Source: a virus. From it: 13,134 nucleotides of DNA. The position numbers and the translations under genes are program-made. Shown piece after piece: positions 1 to 13,134 of the stretch (position 1 is the stretch's first letter; each line of letters starts with the position of its first letter). The stretch lies in the IMG/VR virus record IMGVR_UViG_3300045988_132438, positions 1-13,134 of that record; one strand, given 5' to 3'. Below the pieces are notes generated by a model. It was given only the letters and a program-made list of their open reading frames with translations, had not been told where the DNA came from and did no database searches.

Positions 1-110
1 CAATATCACACAAAGTCTGTCACTTATCCTGTTGACATATTAGTTCATTTGGACTATAATAAACTCAACAAATCAATACAGCACAGCCAACTGGCAGGAG
101 GGAATATGAT
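1..110. repeat. Left inverted terminal repeat (ITR-L), 110 bp
   Basis: Bases 1-110 are the exact reverse complement of 13025-13134, compared by eye base by base. Identity ends at position 111 (a on the left, g in the right copy). The window starts and ends exactly on the repeat. Confidence 0.97.
32..60 (+). promoter_or_regulatory. Consensus sigma-A/sigma-70 type early promoter inside ITR-L, directed inward
   Basis: TTGACA at 32-37, a 17-nt spacer at 38-54, TATAAT at 55-60. The predicted TSS is near A67. AGGAGGG (96-102) follows, then start codons at 106 and 111. Confidence 0.8.
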
Positions 111-203
111 ATGAAAAGAGGAATGATCTTAAACGGACGTCATAGAGTATATGTTGGAAAAGAGATATTCAGTGATATCATGATTTTAAAGGAGGAACAG
201 TAA
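111..203 (+). CDS. Small early ORF, 30 aa (MKRGMILNGRHRVYVGKEIFSDIMILKEEQ), hypothetical
   Basis: Not in the ORF track (under 60 aa). ATG 111 lies 9 nt after the ITR-encoded AGGAGG. Its stop TAA 201-203 abuts ATG 204 of the next gene (TAAATG), which suggests translational coupling. Confidence 0.4.
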   Translation: MKRGMILNGRHRVYVGKEIFSDIMILKEEQ

Positions 204-638
204 ATGAAATCAAAATACACAAAAATTAAATATACGAACACCGGGGTAAAAGCCCCGGTAGTAACTCTTATGAAATCAAAATCAGATCTTGATAGAACAG
301 ACATGATAGAATTAAGATATTCAGACATAATCATAGTTATTTCAAGAATTTTACGAAAAACTATGTATAATAAAGCAGAATCAAGAATCGAAATACGAAG
401 AAAAAATAACACTCTTTGTGCACTAGTTAGAGTGAAAGATACTATCAATGATGCAAAAATAATGATTGAAAACTATTACATTTTTGCAAAACTTTATGTA
501 TATTTGAATGGAAAAAAATATATTAGTGACAAAGAGTATAGATACTATGAAGAATGGAATAAGATAGTGTGTGACAGGTTTAATCATAAACTATATGGTG
601 AAATAATGGGGGTACTCAAATATGCCAAAGAATCCTAA
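204..638 (+). CDS. Hypothetical early protein, 144 aa, Lys/Arg/Tyr-rich, encoded in a very AT-rich segment
   Basis: Track ORF with the strong RBS AAAGGAGG 6-7 nt upstream of ATG 204. I recognised no motif. It sits at the left-end early position upstream of the TP/polymerase pair. Confidence 0.7.
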   Translation: MKSKYTKIKYTNTGVKAPVVTLMKSKSDLDRTDMIELRYSDIIIVISRILRKTMYNKAESRIEIRRKNNTLCALVRVKDTINDAKIMIENYYIFAKLYVYLNGKKYISDKEYRYYEEWNKIVCDRFNHKLYGEIMGVLKYAKES

Positions 639-1242
639 AATCCCGACCACTTCTAAAGGTTTGAACGTCAATCCAAACATGCTGACTACCGCTGATGCTT
701 TACAACTTCGCAGACAGCTTGCAAAACGTCTGAATCAGCGTATGCGTAGATTAAAGGCAAAAGGATTTGATTCAGAAGTTGGAGGAGCGTATGCAGATTA
801 CCAAGACCTGCTTGCAAGATTTTTTCCAGGGAGATCAACCATTCCGGAAAATTTGGAAAATGAAAAGTATAAAGGGTTGCCAAGAACCCAAGTGAAAGCT
901 ATCCAGAAGATTCTGAAAGAAAAAAGTAGCACTGTGCAGGGTTGGAGAGAGATCATAGATCAACGTCAAAAAACACTCAGCACTGAATACGGAATCAATT
1001 TTAAGTCAAAAGAGGAAATGAAGTTGTTTTTTAAATCTGAGGTTTGGAAGTGGTTGCAGAAATTTTATGACAGCAAGCAAACTATGAGAATCATCAGTCA
1101 CAAACTGGATGATTCTACTGTTTCTGAGATCATAAAAGATCTGGAAAAATTCCGCGAGAGAACAGATCCGGATATGGCTGATACGATTGCAAAAGAACTT
1201 GGATTTTCCGGGGAGGCTGAGGCTTTGAAGTACAGACCATAG
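622..1242 (+). CDS. Terminal protein (replication primer) candidate, 206 aa
   Basis: It lies immediately upstream of the protein-primed PolB, as gene 3 precedes gene 2 in phi29. The basic N-terminus (MPKNPKIP..., QLAKRLNQRMRRLKAKGFD) loosely resembles the phi29 TP N-terminus (MARSPRIR..., AKIARTKKKYGVD). The assignment rests mainly on synteny and the presence of ITRs. Confidence 0.55.
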   Translation: MPKNPKIPTTSKGLNVNPNMLTTADALQLRRQLAKRLNQRMRRLKAKGFDSEVGGAYADYQDLLARFFPGRSTIPENLENEKYKGLPRTQVKAIQKILKEKSSTVQGWREIIDQRQKTLSTEYGINFKSKEEMKLFFKSEVWKWLQKFYDSKQTMRIISHKLDDSTVSEIIKDLEKFRERTDPDMADTIAKELGFSGEAEALKYRP

Positions 1243-1260
1243 CAGGGAGGAGACAAAGTA

Positions 1261-3384
1261 ATGATAGTAGCAGGATATCCGGTGGTCTATTTTAAAAACT
1301 ATGATTATATGCATTTATTTGATGGCAATTTTATACGGAGATCCAACGCAGGTCATTACCTTGGAGTATATGAAAAAATCATAACCGTAGACACAGAAAC
1401 CTTTGTATATCTTAACAAAAGCATTGGCTTTGTGACAGACTGGACAATCACCATAGAGAATGACTGCTGCATCTATGGTAATCATGTATCAGATCTGATA
1501 GACACGATAGACAGGATCTGTACCACATTACATGCTGATGACAGCCACCTTGTAAGATTTTTTGTTCACAATTTCCCTTATGATTATGTATTTTTAAGAA
1601 ATCATTTTTTCCAAAAATGGGGAAATCCGGACAAATCATTAGCTGCTAAAACTCATAAGTACATCTTTATGAAATGGACAGGACAGGGTATTGAGTTCCG
1701 GGACAGTCTTATCTTGACACAGAGATCATTAGAAAAGCTTTGTAAAGATATGGGCACCACTGAGAAAGCTGTCGGAACATGGGACTATAAGAAGTTTCGA
1801 ACGCCAGCAAGCCCACGTACGGCAAAAGAAATAGCATATGTCTGTACGGATACGATAAGCTTATGCAAAGCCCTACGCAAATACATAGATCAGAGAGGAT
1901 TTAACGTGGCGAACTGTCCGCTAACCAATACTGGTTTTATCCGAACCAATGCCCGCAGAAGATCAAGAAAAGACAAGAAATGGCGCAAGCAATTTGAGCA
2001 AATGGCATTAACACTTGAACAGTATGACCAGATGCTTGACTGCTATCATGGGGGGTATACCCATGCAAACAGATACTATATTAATCAATTGATAAAAGAA
2101 CCTGTTGAGTGCTATGACTTTGCAAGTTCTTATATTGCCTGGATGTGCTATTGCAAATTTCCTATGACGAACTTTTGTTATACAAATAGTATAACATTAA
2201 AAGACATTATGGACTTGAAAGAAGATTATGCTTTTTCCGGTTATATAAGATTAAAGAATCTGAGGTTGAAAAAAGACTGCCCTATGCCACCTCTTGCTTT
2301 TTCAAAAGCAAAAGTTTGTGTTTTCCCGGAAGCAAAAAGCAAAAAAGAACAGTTCCATGATAATTTGGACAATGGAAAGATTGTAAATGCAGATCTTGTC
2401 ATATATCCATTTACTGATCCGGATTTAGAAGTCATCCTGTCAAGTTATGATTATGAATGGGCGGACGTGTCAAAGGTCATGAGAGCGACAAAGGACTACT
2501 TGCCGGAGTGGTTCACAGGCTATTTGATGGAATTATTTTTTAAAAAATGCACCCTTAAAGGTTTGGATGAAGCAAACTATATGATCTCAAAAGGTGAGTT
2601 AAACGGCATGTACGGAATGACAGTACAGCGGATCATACAGATTATTTGTACTGAGTTGATGGAATCCGGAGAGTGGGAAGCAAAAGAACCAGAGGACAGG
2701 GAAAAAGAACTTGAAAAGTTCTATAAAAATAAAAACAGCTTCATGCCCTACCAGTGGGGAGTATTTATTACAGCTTATGCACAGGCTTATCTTTTCCGGT
2801 TGGGAGCCTGCTGCCGGAGGTGGCTATACTCTGATACGGACTCTGTTAAAGGCACAGACTGGGATCATGATAAACTGGATGCATTTAATCAGTCAATCGT
2901 TGATATGTCAAAAAAAAGAAACATCGGAGTAGTTGAGTATAAGGGCAAAACATTCCGTCTGGGTATCGCTGAGTTTGACGGAATATACAGTGAGTTTATA
3001 ACGATGGGTAGTAAGCGTTATTGCTACCGCTTAAAAAAAGATGCATCCTTGCATCTGACGGTCGCAGGAGTGCCAAAAGAGGGAATTTACTGTTTGGATG
3101 ATGACATAGCAAATTTCAGAAAAGGATTTATTTTCAGAAACGATTTGACATTCCGCAGGAACTACCGCAGGGTGAATGATTGGCAGGATCCTCATTGGAA
3201 AATGAAAACAGAGTATCTTTTTCATGACGGAATCAATGAACTGACCATTGACGGATGCAGGATTGAGTATGGCTGTGCTATCCGGTTGACCGATACAGAG
3301 TATGAATTGGATCATACGATTCCGTATGATAAAGAAACAGGATTGCCGTTGCCGTTTGAAATGGAATATACGGTATATGAATAG
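1261..3384 (+). CDS. Protein-primed family-B DNA polymerase (phi29 gp2-like), 707 aa
   Basis: RBS GGGAGGAG sits upstream of ATG 1261. Motifs read from the translation: ExoI D44-T-E46 (VDTET); ExoII N104-x3-D108 (HNFPYDYVF); ExoIII Y193-x3-D197 (YVCTD). Motif A is D286 (YDFASSY), motif B is K444-x3-N448-x2-Y451-G452 (KGELNGMYG), motif C is Y523-S-D-T-D-S528, and KxY is K585-R-Y587. About 70 aa separate motifs B and C, consistent with a TPR2-type insertion. Confidence 0.95.
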   Translation: MIVAGYPVVYFKNYDYMHLFDGNFIRRSNAGHYLGVYEKIITVDTETFVYLNKSIGFVTDWTITIENDCCIYGNHVSDLIDTIDRICTTLHADDSHLVRFFVHNFPYDYVFLRNHFFQKWGNPDKSLAAKTHKYIFMKWTGQGIEFRDSLILTQRSLEKLCKDMGTTEKAVGTWDYKKFRTPASPRTAKEIAYVCTDTISLCKALRKYIDQRGFNVANCPLTNTGFIRTNARRRSRKDKKWRKQFEQMALTLEQYDQMLDCYHGGYTHANRYYINQLIKEPVECYDFASSYIAWMCYCKFPMTNFCYTNSITLKDIMDLKEDYAFSGYIRLKNLRLKKDCPMPPLAFSKAKVCVFPEAKSKKEQFHDNLDNGKIVNADLVIYPFTDPDLEVILSSYDYEWADVSKVMRATKDYLPEWFTGYLMELFFKKCTLKGLDEANYMISKGELNGMYGMTVQRIIQIICTELMESGEWEAKEPEDREKELEKFYKNKNSFMPYQWGVFITAYAQAYLFRLGACCRRWLYSDTDSVKGTDWDHDKLDAFNQSIVDMSKKRNIGVVEYKGKTFRLGIAEFDGIYSEFITMGSKRYCYRLKKDASLHLTVAGVPKEGIYCLDDDIANFRKGFIFRNDLTFRRNYRRVNDWQDPHWKMKTEYLFHDGINELTIDGCRIEYGCAIRLTDTEYELDHTIPYDKETGLPLPFEMEYTVYE

Positions 3385-3386
3385 AA

Positions 3387-3438
3387 TTGTTATAAAATTG
3401 TAATACTTTTGTAACATAAATAAGTTAAACTGTATAAA
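3387..3438 (+). promoter_or_regulatory. Phased TTGTNA repeats and a weak candidate middle promoter downstream of the polymerase gene
   Basis: TTGTTA at 3387, TTGTAA at 3398 and TTGTAA at 3409 are spaced exactly 11 bp apart. The last one is followed by an 18-nt spacer and TATAAA (3433-3438). Confidence 0.25.
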
Positions 3439-3451
3439 GGAGGTATAACCT

Positions 3452-3565
3452 ATGAAAAAATTCTGGAAAGAAAACAAAGAAGATTTGAGTACTCTTTTCT
3501 GGACTTGCATTACTTTTGCCTGCATGTTTGCAAGCTGCCAAGTCTGGATGCTGTTAGGTGATTAA
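3452..3565 (+). CDS. Small hydrophobic protein, 37 aa (MKKFWKENKEDLSTLFWTCITFACMFASCQVWMLLGD), one predicted TM segment
   Basis: Not in the ORF track. The strong RBS AAAGGAGG (3437-3444) sits 7 nt before ATG 3452. It has a charged N-terminus followed by a hydrophobic stretch of about 22 residues. Confidence 0.5.
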   Translation: MKKFWKENKEDLSTLFWTCITFACMFASCQVWMLLGD

Positions 3566-3581
3566 GGAGGTGAGGAAAAAA

Positions 3582-3740
3582 TTGATTGACTTGTCTGAAA
3601 TTTATGAAATGCTTCGAACAAGCAGTCTGAGAAAAGTAAACTATGAGAATGAAGAAATCAGTGTAGTAGCTTACAAGGTAGGAGAAATCATTAGAATTGA
3701 TGTAAAGGAGGTAACAAAAGATGAATGTGTCCATGGATGA
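3582..3740 (+). CDS. Hypothetical small protein (about 52 aa from TTG 3582; start uncertain)
   Basis: The track ORF 3558-3740 begins at a GTG inside the preceding gene. AAGGAGGTGAGG (3564-3575) lies 6 nt upstream of TTG 3582. An alternative ATG at 3609 has no RBS. Confidence 0.4.
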   Translation: MIDLSEIYEMLRTSSLRKVNYENEEISVVAYKVGEIIRIDVKEVTKDECVHG

Positions 3741-3852
3741 TGCTTTTAAGGCACTTCACATTATTTCTCAAATCTGTACAGAAAACAAGGGTTGTAAATC
3801 ATGCCCATCTTATTGGAGTATAAAAGTACCTAAAATTAAATTATTTGATTAA
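3721..3852 (+). CDS. Small Cys-containing protein, 43 aa (MNVSMDDAFKALHIISQICTENKGCKSCPSYWSIKVPKIKLFD)
   Basis: Not in the ORF track. RBS AAGGAGG (3706-3712) lies 8 nt before ATG 3721, and the ORF overlaps the end of the previous ORF. Cysteines fall at positions 19, 25 and 28. Confidence 0.45.
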   Translation: MNVSMDDAFKALHIISQICTENKGCKSCPSYWSIKVPKIKLFD

Positions 3853-3870
3853 AAAAGGAGAAAAAATATC

Positions 3871-4170
3871 ATGTTAAAATCAAACGTAAAAATCACTTGC
3901 AAACCTTATAACGGTAGTTCAAAAACAAAAGCCTTTGTTGATCTGACTCTGGATGATACACTCATAATTAAAGGACTTACACTGCTTGAGGGGAAAAACG
4001 GGCTTTTCCTGTCATTCCCAAGTACAAAAGGAAAAGACGGAAAGTATTATGATTCCGTTTACTCTCTGGATAAAGAGTGGTTAAAACTTTTGCAGGATGC
4101 CTGCATCAAAAAATACAATGAATGCAACCAGACTTCACAGCCTGTATCCTCCGGGGGTGGATTCCGGTAA
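3871..4170 (+). CDS. SpoVG-family (nucleic-acid-binding) protein, 99 aa
   Basis: RBS AAAAGGAG. The segment KAFVDLTLDDTLIIKGLTLLEGKNGLFLSFPSTKGKDGKYYDSVYSLDKEWLKLLQDACIKKY aligns by eye with B. subtilis SpoVG as I recall it ([62 protein letters not shown]). Confidence 0.65.
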   Translation: MLKSNVKITCKPYNGSSKTKAFVDLTLDDTLIIKGLTLLEGKNGLFLSFPSTKGKDGKYYDSVYSLDKEWLKLLQDACIKKYNECNQTSQPVSSGGGFR

Positions 4171-5219
4171 TGAATATCTATGATAGAAATGGTTGGCTGG
4201 ATGTTCCAAGGATTGTCCAGCTTGCCGATAAAAATAAAATTAACTTTATCTTTATTATTGGGGCAAGACGAACCGGGAAAACGTATGGTATCTTCCAGCA
4301 CTTTATCAATGATGTCTTTTCGAAAAATGAGAAGATCATTTACATGAGACGCACAAAAGAGCAACTGACAAAAGTATTTCTTCCGGAGTTTGACCCCTGG
4401 CTGGACATAAACAAAAATATGAACAGGTTTTTTCACTTCGAAAAACCCAGAGGAGAATATGGTCGTATTAAGATTGTGGAGCAAACAGAGGAAGAGGAAG
4501 TATATAGAGGTGAGGCTTTTTGTCTAACTTCGATGCATAACAACCGTGGTTTCTCTGGATCTGATTTTTCTGAGGGAATTTATGATGAATTCATCCCAGA
4601 GAAGATAGCAAAAGCAATCAGTGGGGAAGATGATGCGTTTTTGAATGCTGTTGAAACAATCTCAGCAAACAGGGAATTGCAAGGAAAGAAACCGTTCCGC
4701 TGGTGGTTGGCTTCCAACTCCAATACGCTGGATAATCCGATTGTACAAGCTTTTGGTTTGCTTCCAATCCTTGAGCGAATGAAAAAAAATAAGCAGGAGT
4801 TTTCATTGCTAAAAGAAAGAGGAATCATTTTAGTTTTAATTAATGACTCTCCGATTTCAGAAAAAAAGAAAGACACTGCATTGTATCGTGCTTTATCGGG
4901 TAATACGGACTTTGCAAAGATGGCGCTTTCAAATGAGTTTGCATATGATGATGTATCGGCTATCCGATCAGAAGATATACGACAATACAAGCTTATTTGT
5001 GTCATTGGAAAAGTAGCAATTTATGAGCATAAATCAAAAGCCCATTTGTATGTGTCGGATCATATCTCTGGGTCTTGTAAGGATGTATTTGAAGACAACC
5101 AACATGGAAAAGACCAATTCAGATGCTTTTATAGTTGGATTGATAGCTATCGTCTGACAAATAGGATAAGTTATCAGAATATTTCAGTAAAATTTTATAT
5201 TGACAAATTATTCAAATAG
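4170..5219 (+). CDS. DNA packaging (encapsidation) ATPase, phi29 gp16-like, 349 aa
   Basis: Start ATG 4170 overlaps the upstream stop (TAATG). The track ORF's earlier start at 4122 lies inside the SpoVG-like gene. Walker A GARRTGKT is at 4260-4283. NFIFIIGARRTGKTYG...KIIYMRRTKEQLTKV parallels phi29 gp16 LNFVIGARGIGKSYA...QFIYVRRYKPELAKV. The Walker B-like IYDEFIPEK matches VFDEFIREK. Confidence 0.9.
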   Translation: MNIYDRNGWLDVPRIVQLADKNKINFIFIIGARRTGKTYGIFQHFINDVFSKNEKIIYMRRTKEQLTKVFLPEFDPWLDINKNMNRFFHFEKPRGEYGRIKIVEQTEEEEVYRGEAFCLTSMHNNRGFSGSDFSEGIYDEFIPEKIAKAISGEDDAFLNAVETISANRELQGKKPFRWWLASNSNTLDNPIVQAFGLLPILERMKKNKQEFSLLKERGIILVLINDSPISEKKKDTALYRALSGNTDFAKMALSNEFAYDDVSAIRSEDIRQYKLICVIGKVAIYEHKSKAHLYVSDHISGSCKDVFEDNQHGKDQFRCFYSWIDSYRLTNRISYQNISVKFYIDKLFK

Positions 5220-5228
5220 ACTTATATT
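5200..5228 (+). promoter_or_regulatory. Near-consensus promoter within the last codons of the ATPase gene
   Basis: TTGACA at 5200-5205, a 17-nt spacer at 5206-5222, TATATT at 5223-5228. The predicted TSS is about A5235/G5236. Confidence 0.6.
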
Positions 5229-5234
5229 TTAATT

Positions 5235-5313
5235 AGGTCAACGTGGCTACATCGACCGCCGGAAGCGGATGCCGTGGGGTGATTACCCGGAAGCGTTGAC
5301 CTATTTTAATTTT
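5235..5313 (+). ncRNA. Candidate structured small RNA (three-way junction); packaging RNA or late-leader attenuator
   Basis: A perfect 10-bp helix TAGGTCAACG (5234-5243) / CGTTGACCTA (5294-5303) encloses two hairpins. The first is an interrupted stem at 5245-5273 with a CGGAA loop. The second is GGGT 5277-5280 / ACCC 5285-5288 with a GATT loop. TTTTAATTTT (5304-5313) follows. The predicted promoter places the TSS at the first bases of the outer helix. No ORF with an RBS covers the element. Confidence 0.4.
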
Positions 5314-5337
5314 ACTTCCGGCAGAAAAGGAGAAAAA

Positions 5338-5649
5338 ATGAAAGTAGATCAGATTTTAGAACTTGGAAAACTTGGATTTACAAAAAATGAGATCATGGGG
5401 ATTCTGAACGCTCAGAGTATGTCCGGACTTGGACAGATTACAACTCCGGAACAGGGTACTACGCAGCAGACTACTCCTGGACAGGTTCCAACTCCGGGAC
5501 AGGATGCAACAAACACAGCGTTATTGACAGCAATCAATACTTTGACTGCTACCTTGCAGGCTGGGAACCTGTCAGCATCCGGAAAAGCTGGGTCAGCACC
5601 ACGTACCTCTGACAACGTAGCGGAAGATCTGATGAAACTCATGAATTAA
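5338..5649 (+). CDS. Scaffolding protein candidate, 103 aa
   Basis: RBS AAAAGGAG lies before ATG 5338. The track's earlier start at 5269 has no RBS and runs through the structured element. It is a small protein immediately upstream of the major capsid gene (phi29 gp7 position) with a low-complexity T/P/Q/G linker. Confidence 0.5.
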   Translation: MKVDQILELGKLGFTKNEIMGILNAQSMSGLGQITTPEQGTTQQTTPGQVPTPGQDATNTALLTAINTLTATLQAGNLSASGKAGSAPRTSDNVAEDLMKLMN

Positions 5650-5662
5650 GGAGGGTAAATAA

Positions 5663-6859
5663 ATGGCAAACAGTTTAGTAGTCCAGGATGCCTATTTAAT
5701 CATCAATGATTTATACAAAATGGCTACCGGACGCGAAAATATCAAAGCAGTAGACACAAGTTCCTTTGTGTCGGTTGGTGAAACTATGTTGCGGACAGGT
5801 GTAGAGCCAACACTGAAAGCACTCAGTCAGTGGTGCGGAAGAACATACTTTGAAATGGAAAAATACAGATCCGGTGTATTCCGCTCAATCATTGAGAATA
5901 ACGAACGCTGGGGGGCTATCACACGTGAGATTATTTCACTTCCGTTGGATGCAGAGGCTTCGCAGGATTGGAATACAGACTTGAATGAAAATCAGCTTGC
6001 TGATGGTCAGTCGGTCGACATGTACAAGATCAATGCCCCGAAAGTAGTGGAGTTGAAATTCTACGGTAGCAAAGTCTTACAGTCTCATATCACACGATTC
6101 CGTGATCAGCTGGCATTAGCTTTTTCTAATGAAACTGAGTTTCTTATGTTTGTAAGTAGCTATATGACCGCTTACTATAATGATATTGAATCCAGAAATG
6201 AAGCAAAGCGCAGACTGACAGTGCTCAACTTCATGGCAGGCATTTCCTATCTTGGAACAAATGAAGTAGATCTTGTAAAAGAGTACAATACAGCCTATGG
6301 AACAAAACTGACAAGAAAGCAGCTTTTAAGCCCGGAGTACCACAGAGATTTCATGGCTTTTGTGGTTGCAAGAATCAAAAAAGATTCCAAAAAGATGCAG
6401 GATCGCACGACAAAGTATCACATGAATCTGACTGGAAAAGATATCCTGCGCTTTACACGTCCGGAGAACCAGAAACTGCTTATGTATACCGATTTCTGGA
6501 TTGATTCCGAAACACAGGTATTTCCGACAGTCTTTAGTGATGAACAGTTAAAGATTGCCGACAAAGAACTTGTAAACGGCTGGCAGGAGTTTGACAGCCC
6601 AGCCATCAACATTAAACCTAACATCATTGATGCGACCGGTGTTTCCAAAACAGCTACGACAGCGGTAAATCTACCATATGTACTTGGTATTTTATATGAT
6701 CGTAGAGCAATGGGAGTGAACAATCAGTGGATGTACTCAGCAGCTACCCCATTCAACGCAGCAGGTGGCTATTACAATATCTTTGATCACTACCGGTTCA
6801 ACGCTTGGAATAATTTCACACACAACGCAGTCCTTTACGTACTGGGGGAGGGGGCATAA
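5663..6859 (+). CDS. Major capsid protein, phi29 gp8-like, 398 aa
   Basis: RBS AAGGAGGG. The C-terminal region ILYDRRAMGVNNQWMYSAATPFNAAGGYYNIFDHYRFNAWNNFTHNAVLYVLGEG aligns by eye with phi29 gp8 [54 protein letters not shown]. It ends there, with no C-terminal Ig-like domain. Confidence 0.85.
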   Translation: MANSLVVQDAYLIINDLYKMATGRENIKAVDTSSFVSVGETMLRTGVEPTLKALSQWCGRTYFEMEKYRSGVFRSIIENNERWGAITREIISLPLDAEASQDWNTDLNENQLADGQSVDMYKINAPKVVELKFYGSKVLQSHITRFRDQLALAFSNETEFLMFVSSYMTAYYNDIESRNEAKRRLTVLNFMAGISYLGTNEVDLVKEYNTAYGTKLTRKQLLSPEYHRDFMAFVVARIKKDSKKMQDRTTKYHMNLTGKDILRFTRPENQKLLMYTDFWIDSETQVFPTVFSDEQLKIADKELVNGWQEFDSPAINIKPNIIDATGVSKTATTAVNLPYVLGILYDRRAMGVNNQWMYSAATPFNAAGGYYNIFDHYRFNAWNNFTHNAVLYVLGEGA

Positions 6860-6860
6860 T

Positions 6861-7181
6861 ATGTTAGCAGCATCTTTACAAGTTCCTAGTGGGGGAAGTA
6901 TCGTTGCAAAATTACCTTTTAGAAAAGTCGGATTAAGAAGAATAGTTATTAGTGCCCCTAGTGACAGTGTGAATCTTACTTATGATGGCATCAATTTAGT
7001 AAAATTCAGCAAATACAACGGTTTTATTGATTTAAAATTCGAAAGTTATTTTGGTTTTCCGGATGCTAGCAATTTTGCCTTTGTAAACTACGACACTACT
7101 AATGCCAATGTTGTTGTTCTTGCTGACTGTGTTCCAGAATCACCTATAAACAATGATTATTTTGAGGTACAAACATCATGA
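6861..7181 (+). CDS. Hypothetical protein, 106 aa, probable virion component (occupies the phi29 gp8.5 position)
   Basis: ATG 6861 lies 7 nt after GGAGGGGG and 1 nt after the capsid stop. The track's longer N-terminus (from 6765) overlaps the capsid gene. The composition looks beta-rich and I recognised no motif. Confidence 0.6.
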   Translation: MLAASLQVPSGGSIVAKLPFRKVGLRRIVISAPSDSVNLTYDGINLVKFSKYNGFIDLKFESYFGFPDASNFAFVNYDTTNANVVVLADCVPESPINNDYFEVQTS

Positions 7182-7402
7182 CAGACACAATTTTGACAGT
7201 TTTAGGAAACTATGCTTTTCCGATCGTTTGCTGTATTGGCATGGCTTACTTTGTAAAATACATGTACGACCAGACCAATGCACGAGTTGACAAACTAAAC
7301 GAAGATCACAAGAATGAAGTTGATACGCTTTCTGAGGTGATCAAAAACAATACGATTGCCTTAGAAAAGATGAACGCATTAATCGAACAAATTGGAAAGT
7401 AG
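7178..7402 (+). CDS. Holin candidate, 74 aa, single N-terminal TM segment plus a charged helical tail
   Basis: ATGA overlap with the upstream stop. The hydrophobic stretch ILTVLGNYAFPIVCCIGMAYFV is followed by KYMYDQTNARVDKLNEDHKNEVDTL. This topology resembles the BhlA/UviB or YvrJ-type small holin-like proteins. It lies directly upstream of the endolysin. Confidence 0.55.
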   Translation: MTDTILTVLGNYAFPIVCCIGMAYFVKYMYDQTNARVDKLNEDHKNEVDTLSEVIKNNTIALEKMNALIEQIGK

Positions 7403-7409
7403 GTGCTAT

Positions 7410-8066
7410 ATGACAGCAAATGAACTTGTAGCATATGCTACTAATTTAATTGGCACTCCTTATGTCTGGGGTGGTAACACTCCTGCACAGGGACTTGACT
7501 GTTCCGGATTGCTTTACTATATCCAGAAGAAAGCAGGATCAGACGTGAGAGATATGACTGCTTCCGGATATTCCGAGTTTGGAAAAAAGATTGAAATTGG
7601 GCAGAAAAAACCGGGTGATTTTCTCTTTTTTGGTAGACCGGTCACTCATTGTGCTATTTATGTTGGAAACGGGTATATGATCGAAAGCCGAGGAGGACGA
7701 AAAAACACTGCTGAAAATCCAGGTATGGGAGTTGTAAAAAGCCCTGTAAGTCGTAGATCTGACTTATCTTGTATTCGCAGGGTATGGACAGAATACAATG
7801 AAGCACTAACCTATTCGATTGGAAAAACTTATACTACCAGAGTTGACCATTTACATGTTCGTTTTTCTGTCTGGGGACAAATCAAAGGATATGAACAGCT
7901 GACAGCTGACGGAATGAAACATGCTTATTCTGATGGATGCTTGAAAAAGGGAACCACAGTCACGGTAAAGGATGTCAAAAAGGATGCTGCCGGAGCAACG
8001 TGGGTAAGGATTCCATCCGGTTGGGTTTGCGCAATCACAGCAAAAGGAGATATCTATTTATCATGA
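7410..8066 (+). CDS. Endolysin: NlpC/P60 (C40) cell-wall peptidase with a C-terminal SH3b-like binding domain, 218 aa
   Basis: GTPYVWGGNTPAQGLDCSGLLYY carries the catalytic Cys31, and GDFLFFGRPVTHCAIYVGNGYMIES carries His80; together these are the NlpC/P60 signature. The C-terminal part (...GTTVTVKDVKKDAAGATWVRIPSGWVCAITAKGDIYL) looks SH3b-like. ATG 7410 is preferred over the track's TTG 7392. Confidence 0.85.
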   Translation: MTANELVAYATNLIGTPYVWGGNTPAQGLDCSGLLYYIQKKAGSDVRDMTASGYSEFGKKIEIGQKKPGDFLFFGRPVTHCAIYVGNGYMIESRGGRKNTAENPGMGVVKSPVSRRSDLSCIRRVWTEYNEALTYSIGKTYTTRVDHLHVRFSVWGQIKGYEQLTADGMKHAYSDGCLKKGTTVTVKDVKKDAAGATWVRIPSGWVCAITAKGDIYLS

Positions 8067-9406
8067 CGGAAATCATCTTATATCATTTTTCCAAAAGAAA
8101 AAACAGCACCAAAAGACCAACGGGACAGGGCACTACTGTGCCCTGTCTTTTAAAATCGAACACCACTTTTCAGAATCCAGTGTTTAAATTAAAATTATCA
8201 TTAGATAATGCATTGCAATACAACTATTTACAATGGGCTGACCATTACTATTTTATCAATTCGACGATGTCATTAAATAATGACATGGTTGAGATCTCAG
8301 CGAGTGAGGATGTGTTAGCTACCTACCGGACAGAGATCAGCAACTATACATGCTTTATTGAGCGTTCTGCTAAGCAGAATACGCTTGCAAATGATTCCAT
8401 GTATATCCCTACAAATGACTGGGTAAGTCAATCTACGATAGTTGGACAGCCAATAAATACGTTTGTGAATGGGTATGCACCAAACTATTTACTGCGCACT
8501 GTATCAGTTGAGGGAGTAAACACCTATTATATAAGAGGTAAGCAATTAAAAGAGTTATGCAACTTTATGTACACATATGGATCTATTCCAGATGTAATGG
8601 AAACAGCATTGACGCGTTTACTTTTTAATCCGTTTCAGTATATTCTTGATTTAAAATGGTTACCTTTTATGGTTGAAAAATTTGTAAATGCATTAGATAC
8701 TGTAAAGCTTGGCTACTGGGATAGCAACAAAAATGCCTATCTGATAGATGATGCATCTTGTACTTTTTCATATGATTTAAGCCTTGGGAATCCCTTATAT
8801 GCTGATACAGATTTCAGATTTTACAATCCTGCTTTTTCAAAGTATACTGTAAAGCTTCCATTTGTGGGGATTATTCCTATCAATCCAGCAAAGACCCATA
8901 AGGGGCAGTTAAAAGCTACTTATAACTTTGATGCTGTCTCCGGCATGGCAGACGTTTGGGTAACTTCCGGATCTGATGAATATGCACATTTTCAATGTCA
9001 GCTTGCCGTTCCGGTTCAAATTGGATATGCTACGGCAAACATTGGTCAGCTTACTACCAGCTTGATAGACGTAGGAACAAGCCTTGCTTCCGGTAACCCA
9101 ATAGGGGCTATCACAAATACGTTGGGGGCATTCCAGAGCGTAACCTCTCCGGAGCCTAACATGGTCGGAACTATTGGAAATATCAGTTCCATTTTGAACA
9201 ACATGGAAGCAAACAGCATCTGCTATGCCTGCACAAGCATAGGTCCAGATGGAGCAAGTGAGGGTTTTGTAGATGGCACTGTACGCTCTATATCTGGACT
9301 GACAGGCTTTGTAAAGTGTAGGAATGCATCTATACAGATTGCAGGATTTGAGGGGGATCAAGAGCAGGTGAATGAGTACTTAAACAACGGATTTTACTTT
9401 GAATAG
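8063..9406 (+). CDS. Tail knob / distal tail tube protein, phi29 gp9-like, 447 aa
   Basis: ATGA overlap with the endolysin stop. The N-terminal YNYLQWADHYYFINSTMSLNNDMVEISASEDVLATY resembles gp9 [41 protein letters not shown]. A Gly/Ala/Ser/Thr-rich hydrophobic loop (GQLTTSLIDVGTSLASGNPIGAITNTLGAFQS) sits at the position of the gp9 membrane-active loop. The C-terminal FVKCRNASIQIAGFEGDQEQVNEYLNNGFYFE resembles gp9 [32 protein letters not shown]. Confidence 0.7.
   Translation: MTEIILYHFSKRKNSTKRPTGQGTTVPCLLKSNTTFQNPVFKLKLSLDNALQYNYLQWADHYYFINSTMSLNNDMVEISASEDVLATYRTEISNYTCFIERSAKQNTLANDSMYIPTNDWVSQSTIVGQPINTFVNGYAPNYLLRTVSVEGVNTYYIRGKQLKELCNFMYTYGSIPDVMETALTRLLFNPFQYILDLKWLPFMVEKFVNALDTVKLGYWDSNKNAYLIDDASCTFSYDLSLGNPLYADTDFRFYNPAFSKYTVKLPFVGIIPINPAKTHKGQLKATYNFDAVSGMADVWVTSGSDEYAHFQCQLAVPVQIGYATANIGQLTTSLIDVGTSLASGNPIGAITNTLGAFQSVTSPEPNMVGTIGNISSILNNMEANSICYACTSIGPDGASEGFVDGTVRSISGLTGFVKCRNASIQIAGFEGDQEQVNEYLNNGFYFE
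8124..8151 (+). terminator. Terminator-like stem-loop inside the tail-knob CDS (possible attenuator)
   Basis: GACAGGGCAC (8124-8133), loop TACT, GTGCCCTGTC (8138-8147). This is a perfect 10-bp stem with 7 G:C pairs, followed by TTTT (8148-8151). It lies 61 nt into the gene. Confidence 0.4.
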
Positions 9407-9421
9407 AAAGAGGTGATAAAC

Positions 9422-10342
9422 ATGTGGACGCCGGTTAATTTTGACAAGATTAATATTTGCACAAATTACTTCCAACCGTCCGGAATTAAAGTCGACAGCT
9501 TATATACTGATACGTTTGATCGTATGCTTTATGAGCGTGTTTGTTCAATTTTAGACATTAGCTATAATGGAACTATTGACATTGATTACTTTAAATATTG
9601 TTTGCTTTTCGGTGGCTATATTTGCATAACAAAGACAGATCTTTATGGTCTGATTGCACAATACCCAATTTTGACAGGCTACAATATTTATTTCAAACCA
9701 ACCACAGCTACTATACACACGTATTCAAGCAATGCAGAGATTGACATGGAGGACATGGAGATCGGAAAAGACTGTTCTGTCATCTATCTCAGACCAACTT
9801 TCTGCGGCATTGGGGATATCATCGGTTTTTACAGCTATAAGCTGGCACTGGTAGCAAGTGCGTTTGATATGAATGTATTTAATTCAAAACTTGCTTTTCT
9901 GATAGCCGCTAAAAATAAAGCCGCGGCTCAGACCTTGAAAAAAATCTATGACAGTATTCAATCCGGTAATCCGGTTGAGGCTTTTGATGTATCAATAAAA
10001 AGCGAGGACAGACAAGGAGCCAAACAGGATGCTTGGGAGAGTTTCAACAAAGACTTGAAGCAGAACTTCATTGCACCGGAGTTGATTGAGGTATTTGAGA
10101 AACTTCTTGATCAGTTTGATACAGAGGTTGGTATTCCATCTGTCGGGTCTGATAAAAAAGAACGACTGAATGTGCTTGAAACAAGCAAAAATGATGCAGA
10201 ATCAGTAACACGGCTCACTACTTGGCTTGAGACTATAAAAGCAGGAGTTGACATGACAAACAGATTATATCCAGAAATGAACTTGTCAATCAAGATCAGA
10301 AGCTATGAAACTGCGGGGGTGAAAACTTATGGGTCTTTATAA
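9422..10342 (+). CDS. Portal / upper collar connector protein, phi29 gp10-like, 306 aa
   Basis: RBS AAAGAGGTG lies before ATG 9422. The track start at 9413 is the GTG inside that RBS. FDTEVGIPSVGSDKKERLNVLETSKNDAES parallels gp10 [29 protein letters not shown]. The central region AAKNKAAAQTLKKIYDSIQSGNPVEAF parallels [24 protein letters not shown]. The size matches gp10 (309 aa). Confidence 0.85.
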   Translation: MWTPVNFDKINICTNYFQPSGIKVDSLYTDTFDRMLYERVCSILDISYNGTIDIDYFKYCLLFGGYICITKTDLYGLIAQYPILTGYNIYFKPTTATIHTYSSNAEIDMEDMEIGKDCSVIYLRPTFCGIGDIIGFYSYKLALVASAFDMNVFNSKLAFLIAAKNKAAAQTLKKIYDSIQSGNPVEAFDVSIKSEDRQGAKQDAWESFNKDLKQNFIAPELIEVFEKLLDQFDTEVGIPSVGSDKKERLNVLETSKNDAESVTRLTTWLETIKAGVDMTNRLYPEMNLSIKIRSYETAGVKTYGSL

Positions 10343-11018
10343 GATTACGATAGCAGGTCTTTATGAATGGAACAACACTCTCTTTGACAAGATGGAATTC
10401 CCAGAATCAGCTGATCGGCAAAACTTTATTGATAGCTTGCTTTTGTCCTATGGGGATTGTGAGCCATTATACCCGGACTGGAATTTTATGTATGAGAGTG
10501 CTATTCCTGCATGGAGCAGGAAATGGAAAAATAGCATTGACAAGGTTTATAATGTGTTAGAATTAACTAATTATGAACCAATTGAAAACTATGATCGTCA
10601 TGAAGAATGGACAGATAGCCCGGATATGACACGAACAAATCAGAGTTCCGGCCAAGATGTAAATAGAGCAGAAGCAGGACAGGGAACCACTACTACTAAC
10701 TCTGGGGCAGATACAACTACCAATGAAGTCAGTGCTTTTAATGATGCAAATTACAGCCCAAACGAAAAAACAACGACGGAATACGGAGGAAGCACAAAGG
10801 TACAAAGTTCCGGAGAAAACAAAAACACGTTTGAATACGGAAAAGGAGAAACAAGCAGAGAAACAGGACAGAATAAGCATTCCGGACATATTCATGGCAA
10901 TATTGGAGTGACTACGTCTCAGCAAATGATCCAGTCAGAACTTGAGTTACGGAAACAAAGCTTTATTGATTATTGCACCGGACTTTTTGCACAGGATTTG
11001 CTTTTATTAACTTATTAA
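10329..11018 (+). CDS. Lower collar protein, phi29 gp11-like, 229 aa
   Basis: It follows the portal gene with a 14-nt overlap, preceded by RBS GGGGGTGA. It contains an NYEPIENYDR motif, a long Ser/Thr/Gly/Asn/Glu low-complexity middle, and a C-terminal FIDYCTGLFAQDLLLLTY. This matches the architecture I recall for gp11-type lower collars. Confidence 0.65.
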   Translation: MGLYKITIAGLYEWNNTLFDKMEFPESADRQNFIDSLLLSYGDCEPLYPDWNFMYESAIPAWSRKWKNSIDKVYNVLELTNYEPIENYDRHEEWTDSPDMTRTNQSSGQDVNRAEAGQGTTTTNSGADTTTNEVSAFNDANYSPNEKTTTEYGGSTKVQSSGENKNTFEYGKGETSRETGQNKHSGHIHGNIGVTTSQQMIQSELELRKQSFIDYCTGLFAQDLLLLTY

Positions 11019-11032
11019 GGAGGGAATAAATT

Positions 11033-12289
11033 ATGATTTTCAGATATCCACACAGTGGATCGCATGATATGAATTTAGACTGGTTGCTTAAAGTTGGCAA
11101 ACAGGTAGAAAAAGATCATGAAGAATGGACGCATATAAAAGATACAGCCCAAACCATGATCGATGATGCTATTCAAAAATCACTTGATGATGGAGAGATC
11201 GGAAAAGTGGTAAATGATGCTACTACAAAACTCATCACTGAACAGATTGACCCATTAAAAGAACAGGTTGGAACAAATACAGCTGATATCACAAAGTTAC
11301 AGAAAAGAGATGGGCTTTTTGACCACTCCGGAAAAACCATCATCATCGGAGACAGCTACACGGTTGGTTATAGTCCAGATGGCAACTTGACACCTTGGAC
11401 TACAAACTTTATCAAGTACACAGGGCTTGAGGATGTTACTATTTCTGCAAATGGGGGGGCTTCATTTTCGACAGCTTCCAATTCATTCCTTATGCTTTTA
11501 AACGCTGTACCTGCTTCTGATGACGTGAAGCAAATCTTGGTAGTTGGAGGGTTTAATGAGTTCGGAACCTATTCAGAGATTGAAAATGCAATCAATGCTT
11601 TTATGGGTGTCGCTGAGGTCAGATTCCCAAATGCAAAAGTGTTTGCCGCTATGGTAGCATGGTCAGTTGACCGGACGGACGACCCAAACGTGCAAAATCG
11701 GTTAAAGATTGCAAAATCTGTTTATAACACACAGCGGAAGAATTGGCGCTATCTGGCAGGCTCAGATTATATCCTCCATGCTGACGGCTTTCTTGCATCT
11801 GACGGGTTCCATCCAAACAGTACCGGACAGGAACGGCTTGCTACCTATCTTGCTACAGCTGTAGAAACAGGAGCATGTAGCCCATCATTTTATGAAGTTA
11901 CTGCAAATTTTGAAGCAGGCGACTTTACACCTACTCCTGGGTCAAGCTGGGCTTTTGTAAGTTCATACAATGAGAATACAAGCACTTTAATCTGGGGTAA
12001 CTATGTTTGCCTACCAAACAGCGGAACACTTGTCTGTGATGGCACTGAGTACCGTTTGGGGCGCATCTATTCGACTTCCTTTATCGGAGATCATAACGGT
12101 TATACATGCTACCCAACCACTGTGATCGTTAAGTCTGGCAGTGACTTTTTTCACATTCCTGCACAGCTTAACTTCCGAGGTCGACATATCTATTTGAGTT
12201 TGTATGATATTTCTGATGACAAGCACAACTACCGGACATTAACAGAGGTTACACAGGTACAGATTCACAGAGGATCAATTACCATGTAA
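11033..12289 (+). CDS. Tail appendage / receptor-binding protein with a central SGNH (GDSL) esterase domain, 418 aa
   Basis: RBS AAGGAGGG. SGNH blocks: I IIIGDS (G106-D107-S108), II ANGG (about 139-142), III VVGGFNE (N175), V D257-G-F-H260 (SDGFHPN). The N-terminal HDMNLDWLLK plus a coiled segment is typical of collar-attached fibres. The C-terminal 140 aa or so is Cys/Tyr/Ser-rich and probably the binding domain. Confidence 0.7.
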   Translation: MIFRYPHSGSHDMNLDWLLKVGKQVEKDHEEWTHIKDTAQTMIDDAIQKSLDDGEIGKVVNDATTKLITEQIDPLKEQVGTNTADITKLQKRDGLFDHSGKTIIIGDSYTVGYSPDGNLTPWTTNFIKYTGLEDVTISANGGASFSTASNSFLMLLNAVPASDDVKQILVVGGFNEFGTYSEIENAINAFMGVAEVRFPNAKVFAAMVAWSVDRTDDPNVQNRLKIAKSVYNTQRKNWRYLAGSDYILHADGFLASDGFHPNSTGQERLATYLATAVETGACSPSFYEVTANFEAGDFTPTPGSSWAFVSSYNENTSTLIWGNYVCLPNSGTLVCDGTEYRLGRIYSTSFIGDHNGYTCYPTTVIVKSGSDFFHIPAQLNFRGRHIYLSLYDISDDKHNYRTLTEVTQVQIHRGSITM

Positions 12290-12301
12290 ATATAAAATAT
12301 G

Positions 12302-12335
12302 ATAGCCCAGTGGATGCTGGGCTATTTTTTATTTT
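12302..12335. terminator. Bidirectional rho-independent terminator between the convergent late (+) and right-early (-) operons
   Basis: ATAGCCCAG (12302-12310), loop TGGATG, CTGGGCTAT (12317-12325), then TTTTTATTTT on the plus strand. A-rich sequence upstream gives a U-rich tail on the minus strand. Confidence 0.8.
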
Positions 12336-12637
12336 GTATCTTTCAAAAGTTTTCTGAGTAACTTGATTACACCCCAGTTTGTTGAGGCACTGTAAGTTCT
12401 TACACCTTTTTGAGGGTTCATAATAAATTCCCTTTTTGATGCTTCATAATAAAGAACCCTCCAGTCTTTAAAGTCTGTCATGCTTATTTCAACAAAACCA
12501 AAATAGTAGTTAAAGTGTTGAATAATCAAAGTATCACAATCTTTGCTAAGTCTACATATGAAGCCTTGCTTTTTGAGATCAAGAGCAAGCTGTTTAAGGT
12601 TCATTGTATCTTTGTTGTAGTATGGATTCACTCTCAT
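12329..12637 (-). CDS. Hypothetical right-end early protein, 102 aa, basic
   Basis: Track ORF with the strong RBS on the minus strand (TAGGAGGTATATAAC then ATG). It is the last gene of the three-gene operon driven by the right ITR promoter. I recognised no motif. Confidence 0.7.
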   Translation of the reverse strand: MRVNPYYNKDTMNLKQLALDLKKQGFICRLSKDCDTLIIQHFNYYFGFVEISMTDFKDWRVLYYEASKREFIMNPQKGVRTYSASTNWGVIKLLRKLLKDTK

Positions 12638-12649
12638 GTTATATACCTC

Positions 12650-12838
12650 CTATAATTCAATATTAAATAAGCTGTTAAGGCAATCTTCAAAACTTGGTTC
12701 AGTATTGCAATACGCAATGATAAACTCTTCATTTGTGCATGGTGCTAACTCACGATGGATAGACTCTCTGAGATCATCATTCATATATAATGCTATATCA
12801 TTCATTTCCCCATTTGTTACTTCTTTGACTGATTTCAT
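12650..12838 (-). CDS. Hypothetical small acidic early protein, 62 aa
   Basis: Track ORF with RBS GAGGTGA and an ATGA start/stop overlap with the upstream gene. It has 13 Asp/Glu against 4 Lys/Arg. Confidence 0.7.
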   Translation of the reverse strand: MKSVKEVTNGEMNDIALYMNDDLRESIHRELAPCTNEEFIIAYCNTEPSFEDCLNSLFNIEL

Positions 12839-13029
12839 CTTTTCACCTCATATTTTAAACCTATGATTTTCATTTCACTTTCAAGAGTGCATAACTCATT
12901 CCAGAGTTCTCTTTCTATTGACTTGAAAGACTCACAGCTAGGATAACTACGAACGTCTTCATACGCTTTTCCCCATTTTCCTAATAAGCACTCATGTGCT
13001 AACTCATATAATCTTTTTTCTTTCATCAT
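12835..13029 (-). CDS. Hypothetical right-end early protein, 64 aa (MMKEKRLYELAHE...)
   Basis: The start is the ATG at ITR position 106 (plus coordinate 13029), or the next ATG, downstream of the ITR AGGAGGG. The track's longer version (start 13086) begins upstream of the predicted TSS and is unlikely. Confidence 0.65.
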   Translation of the reverse strand: MMKEKRLYELAHECLLGKWGKAYEDVRSYPSCESFKSIERELWNELCTLESEMKIIGLKYEVKR

Positions 13030-13134
13030 ATTCCCTCCTGCCAGTTGGCTGTGCTGTATTGATTTGTTGAGTTTATTATAGTCCAAATGAACTAATATGT
13101 CAACAGGATAAGTGACAGACTTTGTGTGATATTG
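13025..13134. repeat. Right inverted terminal repeat (ITR-R), 110 bp
   Basis: Exact reverse complement of 1-110. Confidence 0.97.
13075..13103 (-). promoter_or_regulatory. Consensus early promoter inside ITR-R, directed inward (mirror of 32-60)
   Basis: On the minus strand: TTGACA (13103-13098), 17 nt, TATAAT (13080-13075). The predicted TSS is about 13068. Confidence 0.8.

Follow-up and report, generated by a model that had tools for sequence, protein, structure and literature searches.

The sliding-back step is an established part of phi29 biology. In a 2024 review, viruses related to phi29 are defined by a hallmark set consisting of p2, p8, p9, p10, p11, and p16, and more than 2000 phi29-like entries have been listed, many of which are 12-15 kb metagenome-assembled genomes (MAGs) from the human gut (PMC11476376). 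Small phi29-like isolates include Vibrio K58 g2 (10.4 kb), DU_PP_III (11.5 kb), Astrithrvirus (11.6 kb), Phanie (11.9 kb), and the Amedibacillus phages AD70P2 and AD70P3 (12.2-12.3 kb). Here we describe the uncultured-virus record IMGVR_UViG_3300045988_132438, a stretch of 13,134 nt that is hereafter designated the window (L-numbers denote the contigs and genomes used for comparison). An earlier note on this DNA had presented it as a complete, exceptionally small genome of a phi29-like phage. That finding is real yet overstated: the size and the architecture are ordinary for the group. We interpret the window as the near-complete linear double-stranded DNA genome of an uncultured human-gut podophage of the phi29 kind, short by about 121 nt at each end, and put the probability of this reading at roughly 0.88. 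All genes are present in the window, and the bases lost at both ends are non-coding.

The hallmark set p2, p8, p9, p10, p11, and p16 is complete in the window, as judged by profiles and predicted fold, and we treat these gene identities as established. The family B DNA polymerase (PolB) was correctly recognized in the earlier note; it matches both PF03175 and phrog_1907, and its BLASTP alignment with phi29 gp2 (E=4e-9) spans ExoIII through motifs A, B, and C. The gp16-type ATPase (62.6 bits against a PF05894 cut-off of 25), the major capsid protein (MCP; 56 bits against a cut-off of 27 for PF25622, Phi29_MCP), and the portal (50 bits against 25.6 for PF05352) also pass their Pfam thresholds. 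The lower collar was identified by a nine-member family profile (A3), which matched phi29 gp11 (PDB 6qz9_0A) with E=1.9e-8 and a probability of 92% in hhalign. Sequence searches were weak for the tail knob: single-sequence and small-profile searches against the PDB were negative, and hhalign to gp9 gave 6.8%. The gp9-like identity was settled by structure prediction. In an AlphaFold2 (AF2) model of moderate quality built on 32 diverse homologues (predicted local distance difference test, pLDDT, 72.6; template-modeling score about 0.3), the top nine Foldseek matches were all tail knobs, including phi29 gp9 (5fb5, E=2.6e-13), Andhra (8egs_Y), and C1 (4eo2). The weak match to phrog_2248, the phi29 gp9 family, agrees with this fold.

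The full replication and morphogenesis set that had been claimed for the window therefore stands for the core genes, whereas the terminal protein (TP) and the scaffold are assigned by position only. No profile matched the scaffold candidate, and the start at 5269 proposed for it falls within a structured RNA that is conserved, whereas this start is not; the real start is 5338. The proposed lysis genes were borne out by a holin-like open reading frame (ORF) matching phrog_4898 and an NlpC/P60 lysin matching PF00877. The linear genome with inverted terminal repeats (ITRs) that serves as a criterion for phi29-like phages is likewise a property of the window lineage.

The perfect 110-nt inverted repeat at both window ends, which the earlier note had pointed out, is confirmed, with arms 1-110 and 13025-13134 being 100% complementary. 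Its inner edge (110|111) coincides with the divergence of the first coding sequences of both arms. Because the repeat stops exactly at this divergence, the inner ITR boundary is natural. In contrast, the window does not start and stop on the genome termini, as had been supposed, since contigs of the same strain run 118-120 nt beyond it. L004 (ENA k109_20983), which is 99.8% identical to the window, has 120 nt extra to the left of position 1, and L160 (JGI Ga0250087_01716), which is 99.95% identical, has 118 nt extra beyond position 13134. The GenBank record MT836115 reaches 62 and 85 nt past the window ends. We aligned every contig end reaching the ITR among relatives collected by an MCP-based scan of IMG/VR. 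A shared endpoint, 5'-AAACTTGGCAAG, emerged for more than 20 independent ends; it lies 121 nt beyond the window, or 132 or 136 nt in contigs in which a repeat of 11 or 15 nt, respectively, is duplicated. Ten uncultivated virus genomes (UViGs) carry the terminus at both ends and are 12,877-13,556 bp long; their ITRs measure 224-442 nt in eight of the ten and 117 nt (ungapped) in L061. Because the same-strain contigs extend and more than 20 ends coincide, the window appears to be cut by about 121 nt on each side. The aligned contigs indicate that the real ITR of the window strain is about 231 nt and its genome about 13.4 kb, with ends reading 5'-AAACTTGG.

The possibility that the repeat is an assembly artefact and that the sequence is circular, concatemer-derived, or integrated deserves mention, because De Bruijn assemblers can produce spurious terminal inverted repeats. 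We consider it the least probable of all the alternatives. The same termini, linear ends that we regard as established, occur in dozens of independent assemblies made by different assemblers, and no contig exceeds 13.8 kb. A 30-nt terminus pattern gave 25 matches in IMG/VR and 5 in a metagenome collection, all at most 13 nt from a contig end, with no internal copy among the 30 occurrences. Neither an integrase nor host flanking sequence was found in Pfam and PHROG scans of the window proteins. In L035 (13215-13227), CTTCCGATCT, which we take to be the tail end of an Illumina TruSeq adapter, is fused directly before the phage terminus. Because the adapter abuts the terminus, the library fragment began at that base, which marks a physical DNA end. 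The untrimmed adapter is also a contaminant within that IMG/VR record.

The position of the break in the window has a plausible origin. An alignment of the ITRs of 26 relatives has its entropy peak at a 7-nt patch near the window end, with alleles such as ATCACAC, AGTGTAC, ATAGCAC, ATTGCGC, and others. The patch is flanked by two conserved GTCTGnCA direct repeats and lies just upstream of the ITR promoter. The window and L160 differ at 5 of these 7 nt, as compared with only 5 nt in the remaining 10.8 kb. The window, L021, L037, L161, and L164 all break at or beside the patch, which suggests that its alleles coexist within samples. In L005/L162, which represent the same strain, the break falls at a different place in the ITR, with an overlap of 55 nt (k=55), indicating that the ITR fragments assembly graphs. 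On these sequence comparisons, the symmetric truncation is most likely an assembly-graph break caused by coexisting patch alleles.

These observations also bear on the idea that the window is complete, with the 110-nt repeat as its true termini and the relatives merely being longer-ended. The repeat is perfect and stops exactly at both contig ends, as this idea requires, but we regard it as extremely unlikely. The extra 118-120 nt are carried by contigs that are 99.8-99.95% identical, the break falls at a hypervariable patch where four other contigs also end, and assemblies of the same strain break at another point of the ITR. Furthermore, without the outer 121 nt the genome would miss a conserved terminal origin sequence. 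In L004, L011, and L160, this outer part contains GTGAACA-AATT-GTGAACA and inverted TGTTCAT repeats together with an 11-nt unit, TTCATATTTYG, in one or two copies, and resembles an origin or a protein-binding array. At the right end of L030, the last ~18 nt of the terminus are swapped for ~45 nt of unrelated GC-rich sequence and the ITR copy also carries internal deletions, so that this contig is probably a chimeric assembly. The window is a worked example that a perfect ITR at both contig ends does not prove completeness.

The lineage to which the window belongs is very common in human-gut metagenomes and is catalogued but undescribed. The IMG/VR scan yielded 59 relatives with contigs of 12.0-13.8 kb, 55 of which have a capsid identity of at least 89%. 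Clusters at 90% identity contain 1399 members for PolB, 1592 for MCP, 1023 for the TP candidate, and 1236 for the appendage protein, named "hypothetical protein" at best. Exact window proteins occur on several contigs from other samples, and the closest complete catalogue genomes, L020 and L012, are ~94% identical over 96-97% of their length (MT836115, 83.7% over 86%). According to the earlier note, a near-identical phage that is already known would speak against its reading. At the sequence level such records exist, in JGI at 99.95% and in ENA and Logan at 100% identity, although they are neither described nor annotated.

The novelty of the lineage should be judged against this background. 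PolB and MCP share only 25-31% amino acid identity with isolated phages, to which the window has no nucleotide match, and identity searches revealed no genus- or family-level similarity to Salasmaviridae, Rountreeviridae, Guelinviridae, Madridviridae, or Astrithrvirus. Because of this low identity, we regard the lineage, on its sequence, as unclassified yet of a known kind. The low identity and the lack of a matching described genus could also be read, with the emphasis of the earlier note, as signs of an exceptional near-minimal tailed phage and a categorically new lineage. This is very unlikely. The hallmark set is the standard one, hundreds of copies lie in public catalogues, and many 12-15 kb gut MAGs of this kind were already catalogued (PMC11476376). 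The view that the genome approaches the minimum size of a tailed phage, Mycoplasma phage P1 alone being smaller, is out of date, given the isolates of 10.4-12.3 kb listed above.

A GC-rich structure lies between the ATPase stop (5219) and the scaffold start (5338), following the promoter at 5200-5228. It is present in all 60 relatives compared (54 distinct sequences), and we treat the RNA structure itself as established. RNAalifold, applied to 33 distinct sequences, gave a three-way junction of 19 pairs, 7 of which show compensatory changes, and covariation extends to all of its helices. Helix P1 (9 bp) is formed from both ends of the element and encloses P2 (3 bp) extended by P2a (4 bp), and P3 (3 bp). 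An 8-nt internal loop follows P2 on the 5' side, the apical loop of P2a is CGGAA, and P3 carries a 7-nt loop. The fraction of paired cells was 99.8%, as compared with 93.7% in column shuffles (0/500) and 30-40% with slid partners. Rfam has no match to the element in the window. In particular, RF00044, the family of the prohead (packaging) RNA (pRNA), did not match the window or the full-length L011, L051, and L002, whereas the phi29 control scored 145 bits.

A covariance model of the window-lineage RNA (R1) found no copies in distant relatives, as the model is too narrow. We therefore compared lineages by folding, using hand-defined segments after the ATPase stop. The same architecture was found in AD70P3, MT836587, MT836155, MT836263, and MT835901, whose capsids are 25-37% identical to that of the window. 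The order of elements is a sigma70-type promoter, P1, P2/internal loop/P2a, P3, the 3' strand of P1, and the scaffold ribosome-binding site (RBS). Seven RNA lineages were distinguished (window, L067-69, L002 (AD70P3), L070, L074, L075, and L076); the RNA is 62-70 nt long with fully paired helices, and six of the seven have CGGAA, CCGAA, or CAGAA as their apical loop. In astrithr, L077, phiCPV4, and MT835998 (L071), the stretch behind the ATPase gene did not show this architecture. The last of these, the sixth distant small relative examined, has only a simple terminator-like hairpin after the ATPase stop. In phiCPV4 (L159), a 213-nt intergenic region (16131-16343, minus strand) upstream of the scaffold-like and capsid genes has a GC-rich fold of -81.8 kcal/mol over 221 nt, preceded by a terminator and a promoter-like site, and this structure may be a larger counterpart of the window RNA.

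The internal loop and the P3 loop have complementary sequences, which differ by lineage: AUC/GAU in the window, ACCA/UGGU in L067-69, UCC/GGA in AD70P3 and L076, GUCG/CGAC in L075, GGC/GCC in L074, and AAAAGGAA/UUCCUUUU in L070. These pairs are taken from a shuffle test counting Watson-Crick runs only; AUCG/UGAU with one G-U pair in the window was read by eye from the sequences. In the genus alignment, the four-pair loop-loop interaction is 98.5% paired and includes one compensatory change from U:A to C:G. The shuffle tests for single lineages were weak (p=0.02-0.56), and their Fisher combination, calculated by hand, was ~0.005. We considered and dropped a pseudoknot in which the apical loop would pair with CUUCCGG farther downstream: it shows no covariation and, by reading rather than computation, is broken in L067-69.

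By analogy, this RNA may be a miniature pRNA of 62-70 nt, a tentative reading to which we give somewhat less than an even chance. gp16-type ATPases need pRNA for docking, and the R and L loops of phi29 pRNA pair between molecules, thereby building a ring on the prohead (PMC5066667). Two reviews (one being PMC5066667) restrict the known occurrence of pRNA to phi29 and its relatives among Bacillus phages. The layout of phi29 pRNA (RF00044) resembles that of the window RNA in the same 5'-to-3' order. A closing helix formed from both ends (the A helix, corresponding to P1) leads into a three-way junction, the C/E arm has a 5'-side internal loop (the R loop), as does the first arm of the window RNA with its apical hairpin, and the D hairpin provides the L loop, which is matched by a P3 loop complementary to the internal loop. 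The two RNAs differ in size (62-70 versus 117-120 nt) and in location, between the ATPase and scaffold genes versus the genome end, and they share no sequence or covariance-model similarity. The spacer between PolB and the SpoVG-like gene was also considered as a pRNA site and was ruled out, as L039 is without this spacer.

The element may instead be a cis-acting leader, the main rival, for which we see an even chance. It could be a terminator or attenuator of a complex intrinsic type that lies just behind a constitutive late promoter and is read through with the help of a phage factor, following the logic of lambda PR'-tR'/6S RNA, or an element for mRNA stabilization or translation control. 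It sits between a promoter and the late operon, a U-rich tract follows P1, and the invariant apical CCGGAAG has its complement, CUUCCGG, farther downstream. The loop-loop complementarity could also form in cis, and the individual shuffle tests of it are weak. However, the -10 box precedes the start of P1 by 6-8 nt in every lineage (the promoter of MT836155, L075, being unchecked), so that the RNA would have its 5' and 3' ends paired with each other, like a discrete small RNA. The order of helices and loops equals the Rfam pRNA consensus, some lineages (L076) have a poor U tract, and the docking requirement of gp16-type ATPases (PMC5066667) also speaks for a pRNA. If the pRNA reading holds, pRNA is not confined to the Bacillus Salasmaviridae and would be an ancestral, more compact part of gp16-type motors. 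The RNA makes the use of a packaging RNA by phi29-like phages outside Bacillus directly testable, and isolates carrying it already exist (Amedibacillus AD70P2 and AD70P3).

ORF 622-1242, which stops 18 nt before PolB and has a median conservation of 94% in relatives, probably encodes the TP, judging by its location. Clustering at 50% leaves 86 representatives of its family (~200 amino acids), whose members immediately precede PolB in HM2, AD70P3, astrithr, and the MT83xxxx faecal genomes. The family has near-invariant residues at A34, R40, G107, and S151, and S151 might, speculatively, be the priming residue. The AF2 model is all-helical with a pLDDT of 88.8 and had no Foldseek neighbor in the PDB (E>3); its neighbors in BFVD are only uncharacterized proteins of uncultured podoviruses. 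Searches against the PDB by phmmer and two profiles, a Pfam scan of 59 family members, and tblastn against 50,697 phage records were negative, and hhalign detected no homology to phi29 gp3, the Cp-1 TP, or phiCPV4 gp06 (a putative TP). In phiCPV4, the TP was likewise placed by position, and a protease-sensitive terminal protein was shown experimentally (PMC3362512). The presence of this all-alpha family beside PolB makes its members obvious TP candidates for many small podophages.

Several points weigh against our interpretation of the window as a near-complete phi29-kind genome. The truncation is deduced from near-identical contigs and not from reads of the window contig itself. The TP is a positional candidate only, and neither its sequence nor its fold relates ORF 622-1242 to the TPs of phi29 and Cp-1 or to the putative TP of phiCPV4. 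The role of the RNA in packaging is one that we infer. Assignment of the host by searching the endolysin against GTDB genomes was uninformative, as its NlpC/P60 domain matched Bacillota, Actinomycetota, Pseudomonadota, and others at 32-48% identity over many phyla.

The promoter and terminator motifs, which we also regard as established, suggest how the genome could be expressed. Transcription from the left ITR promoter would cover the early genes, namely the small ORF, the 144-amino acid ORF, the presumed TP, PolB, the accessory ORFs, the SpoVG-like gene, and the ATPase gene. The right ITR promoter would drive three small accessory genes, including the AcrIC5-like ORF, toward the bidirectional terminator; a GGAGGG RBS is present in each ITR arm. 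The earlier claim that early and late genes are all co-linear is not correct, as the minus strand carries the three ORFs at 12329-13029. The promoter at 5200 would make the three-way-junction RNA of 68 nt, and read-through would make the late operon, which comprises the scaffold, capsid, 106-amino acid ORF, holin, endolysin, knob, portal, lower collar, and esterase-bearing appendage genes. Replication is presumably protein-primed, by analogy with phi29, and would start from both ends; TP and PolB would slide back on the terminal AAA, and the outer part of the ITR with its repeated TGAACA/TGTTCA hexamers is the presumed origin. The true terminus is now defined, and its terminal A-run suits sliding-back.

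Both arms are accessory and variable. The core genes have median identities of 86-96% (61 relatives). No Pfam or PHROG match was found for the 144-amino acid ORF, and no profile match for the 106-amino acid ORF, which is assigned to the gp8.5 slot by position; no tRNA genes were found in the window. The spacer between PolB and the SpoVG-like gene varies from 198 to 764 nt among relatives, and beside this highly variable accessory spacer the 37-amino acid hydrophobic ORF always follows PolB at ~67 nt. The SpoVG-like protein could replace the missing p6/p5-type DNA-binding proteins or bind the RNA element. The AcrIC5-like ORF scored 34 bits against a PF22147 cut-off of 27 over 35 of 53 profile positions, and the JGI annotation assigns it to the same family, which may hint at a host with type I-C CRISPR-Cas. 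The esterase domain of the appendage protein matched PF13472 at 4.6e-7, under the gathering cut-off, and phrog_31573 at 3e-24. A local iterative profile search started from this protein reached the same-slot protein of L074 (E=1e-10; the matching part was not examined), which in turn matches pre-neck appendage PHROGs. Same-slot proteins are much larger in L074 (737 amino acids) and L071 (815 amino acids, without a PHROG match). An esterase in place of the gp12 beta-helix suggests possible receptor deacetylation.

Features of the window (aa, amino acids).
Feature	Position	Strand	Basis or remark
Left ITR, inner 110 nt only	1..110	.	True terminus ~121 nt farther out
Hypervariable 7-nt patch ATCACAC	5..11 (mirror 13124-13130)	.	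Entropy peak, ITR alignment of 26 relatives
Sigma70-type promoter TTGACA-17-TATAAT, left ITR, reading inward	32..60	+	12/12 consensus match
RBS GGAGGG after left ITR promoter	97-102	+	
Accessory ORF, 30 aa	111..203	+	Called in L004, L005; 17/61 relatives
Early ORF, 144 aa	204..638	+	49/61 relatives, median identity 61%
TP candidate, 206 aa, all-alpha	622..1242	+	Position upstream of PolB
Protein-primed-type family B DNA polymerase, 707 aa	1261..3384	+	PF03175 3.5e-12; phrog_1907 2e-50
Hydrophobic ORF, 37 aa	3452..3565	+	54/61 relatives, median identity 95%
Variable accessory region with 52/60-aa and 43-aa ORFs	3566..3870	+	
SpoVG-like nucleic-acid-binding protein, 99 aa	3871..4170	+	PF04026 2.5e-17; 58/61 relatives
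gp16-type packaging ATPase, 349 aa	4170..5219	+	PF05894 5e-17; phrog_2150 1.5e-28; start taken from L004 gene calls
Strong promoter TTGACA-17-TATATT, RNA element and late operon	5200..5228	+	11/12 match; kept in relatives
Three-way-junction RNA (P1, P2/P2a, P3; core 5235-5302) and U-rich tract	5235..5314	+	Covariation
Scaffold candidate, 103 aa	5338..5649	+	Directly before MCP; conserved RBS AAAGGAGA and ATG
Major capsid protein, phi29 gp8 type	5663..6859	+	PF25622 4.5e-15
Variable ORF, 106 aa, gp8.5 slot	6861..7181	+	34/61 relatives, median identity 48%
Holin-like protein, 74 aa	7178..7402	+	phrog_4898 (holin) 1e-4
Endolysin, NlpC/P60 peptidase and C-terminal domain	7410..8066	+	PF00877 2.8e-18
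Tail knob, gp9-like, 447 aa	8063..9406	+	AF2 model and Foldseek; phrog_2248 1.9e-5
Portal/upper collar, gp10-like	9422..10342	+	PF05352 3.4e-13; phrog_2038 4e-22
Lower collar, gp11-like	10329..11018	+	Family profile against phi29 gp11
Appendage-slot receptor-binding protein with SGNH/GDSL esterase domain	11033..12289	+	PF13472; phrog_31573
Bidirectional intrinsic terminator between convergent units	12301..12326	.	Detected on both strands
Right-arm ORF, 102 aa	12329..12637	-	41/61 relatives
Acidic AcrIC5-like ORF, 62 aa, candidate anti-CRISPR	12650..12838	-	PF22147; 7/61 relatives
First gene of right arm, 64 aa, ATG at inner ITR edge	12835..13029	-	12/61 relatives
Right ITR, inner 110 nt only	13025..13134	.	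Complementarity to 1-110; contig ends of relatives
Same promoter as in left ITR, right ITR, reading inward	13075..13103	-	12/12 consensus match

As a genome, the window adds little, being one more strain of an abundant undescribed gut phi29-like lineage. The interest lies in the corrected termini, the broad family of TP candidates, and above all the conserved small RNA.

The closest records share the genus-level lineage, gene order, and ITR terminus of the window. These are MT836115.1 ("Bacteriophage sp." from human faeces, Mexico; an unverified, unannotated GenBank record), the UViGs L011-L066, and Ga0250087_01716. They differ from the window in the accessory genes of both arms and in the spacer between PolB and the SpoVG-like gene, and none is annotated or described. 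Among isolates, the Amedibacillus phages AD70P2 and AD70P3, which are filed under Guelinviridae, have the same core order: TP candidate, PolB, small ORFs, ATPase, RNA element, scaffold, MCP, knob, portal, lower collar, and appendage, with an opposite-strand accessory arm as well. However, their PolB and MCP are only ~30% identical to those of the window, their head and tail genes are not separated by a lysis cassette, a SpoVG homologue was not detected, and the deposited record is without a long ITR.

Bacillus phage phi29 (Salasmaviridae) shares with the window homologous p2, p8, p9, p10, p11, and p16, the terminal AAA, and a right early operon with a bidirectional terminator. It differs in its 6-bp ITR and in the divergent strands of its early and late genes, and no counterpart of its p4, p5, p6, gp13, or head fibre was found in the window. 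Rfam detects the 174-nt pRNA at the left end of phi29, whereas the window and its relatives have no such match. The Streptococcus phage Cp-1 (Salasmaviridae/Cepunavirus, 19.3 kb) resembles the window in its long ITR (236 bp), the promoters near both ends, the TP gene directly upstream of the polymerase gene, the early and late genes on one strand, and a small leftward operon (orfa-c) at the right end. In contrast, its genome is longer by 6 kb and carries the ATPase and lysis genes at the right end, and its TP is non-homologous. phiCPV4 (Guelinviridae) has a SpoVG gene, as does the window. The late order 7-8-(8.5)-9-10-11-12 that the earlier note had likened to phi29 is upheld, whereas the features it called unusual have precedents: the ATPase gene adjoins the polymerase gene in phiCPV4, AD70P3, and astrithr, and the one-strand layout with a long ITR is found in Cp-1.

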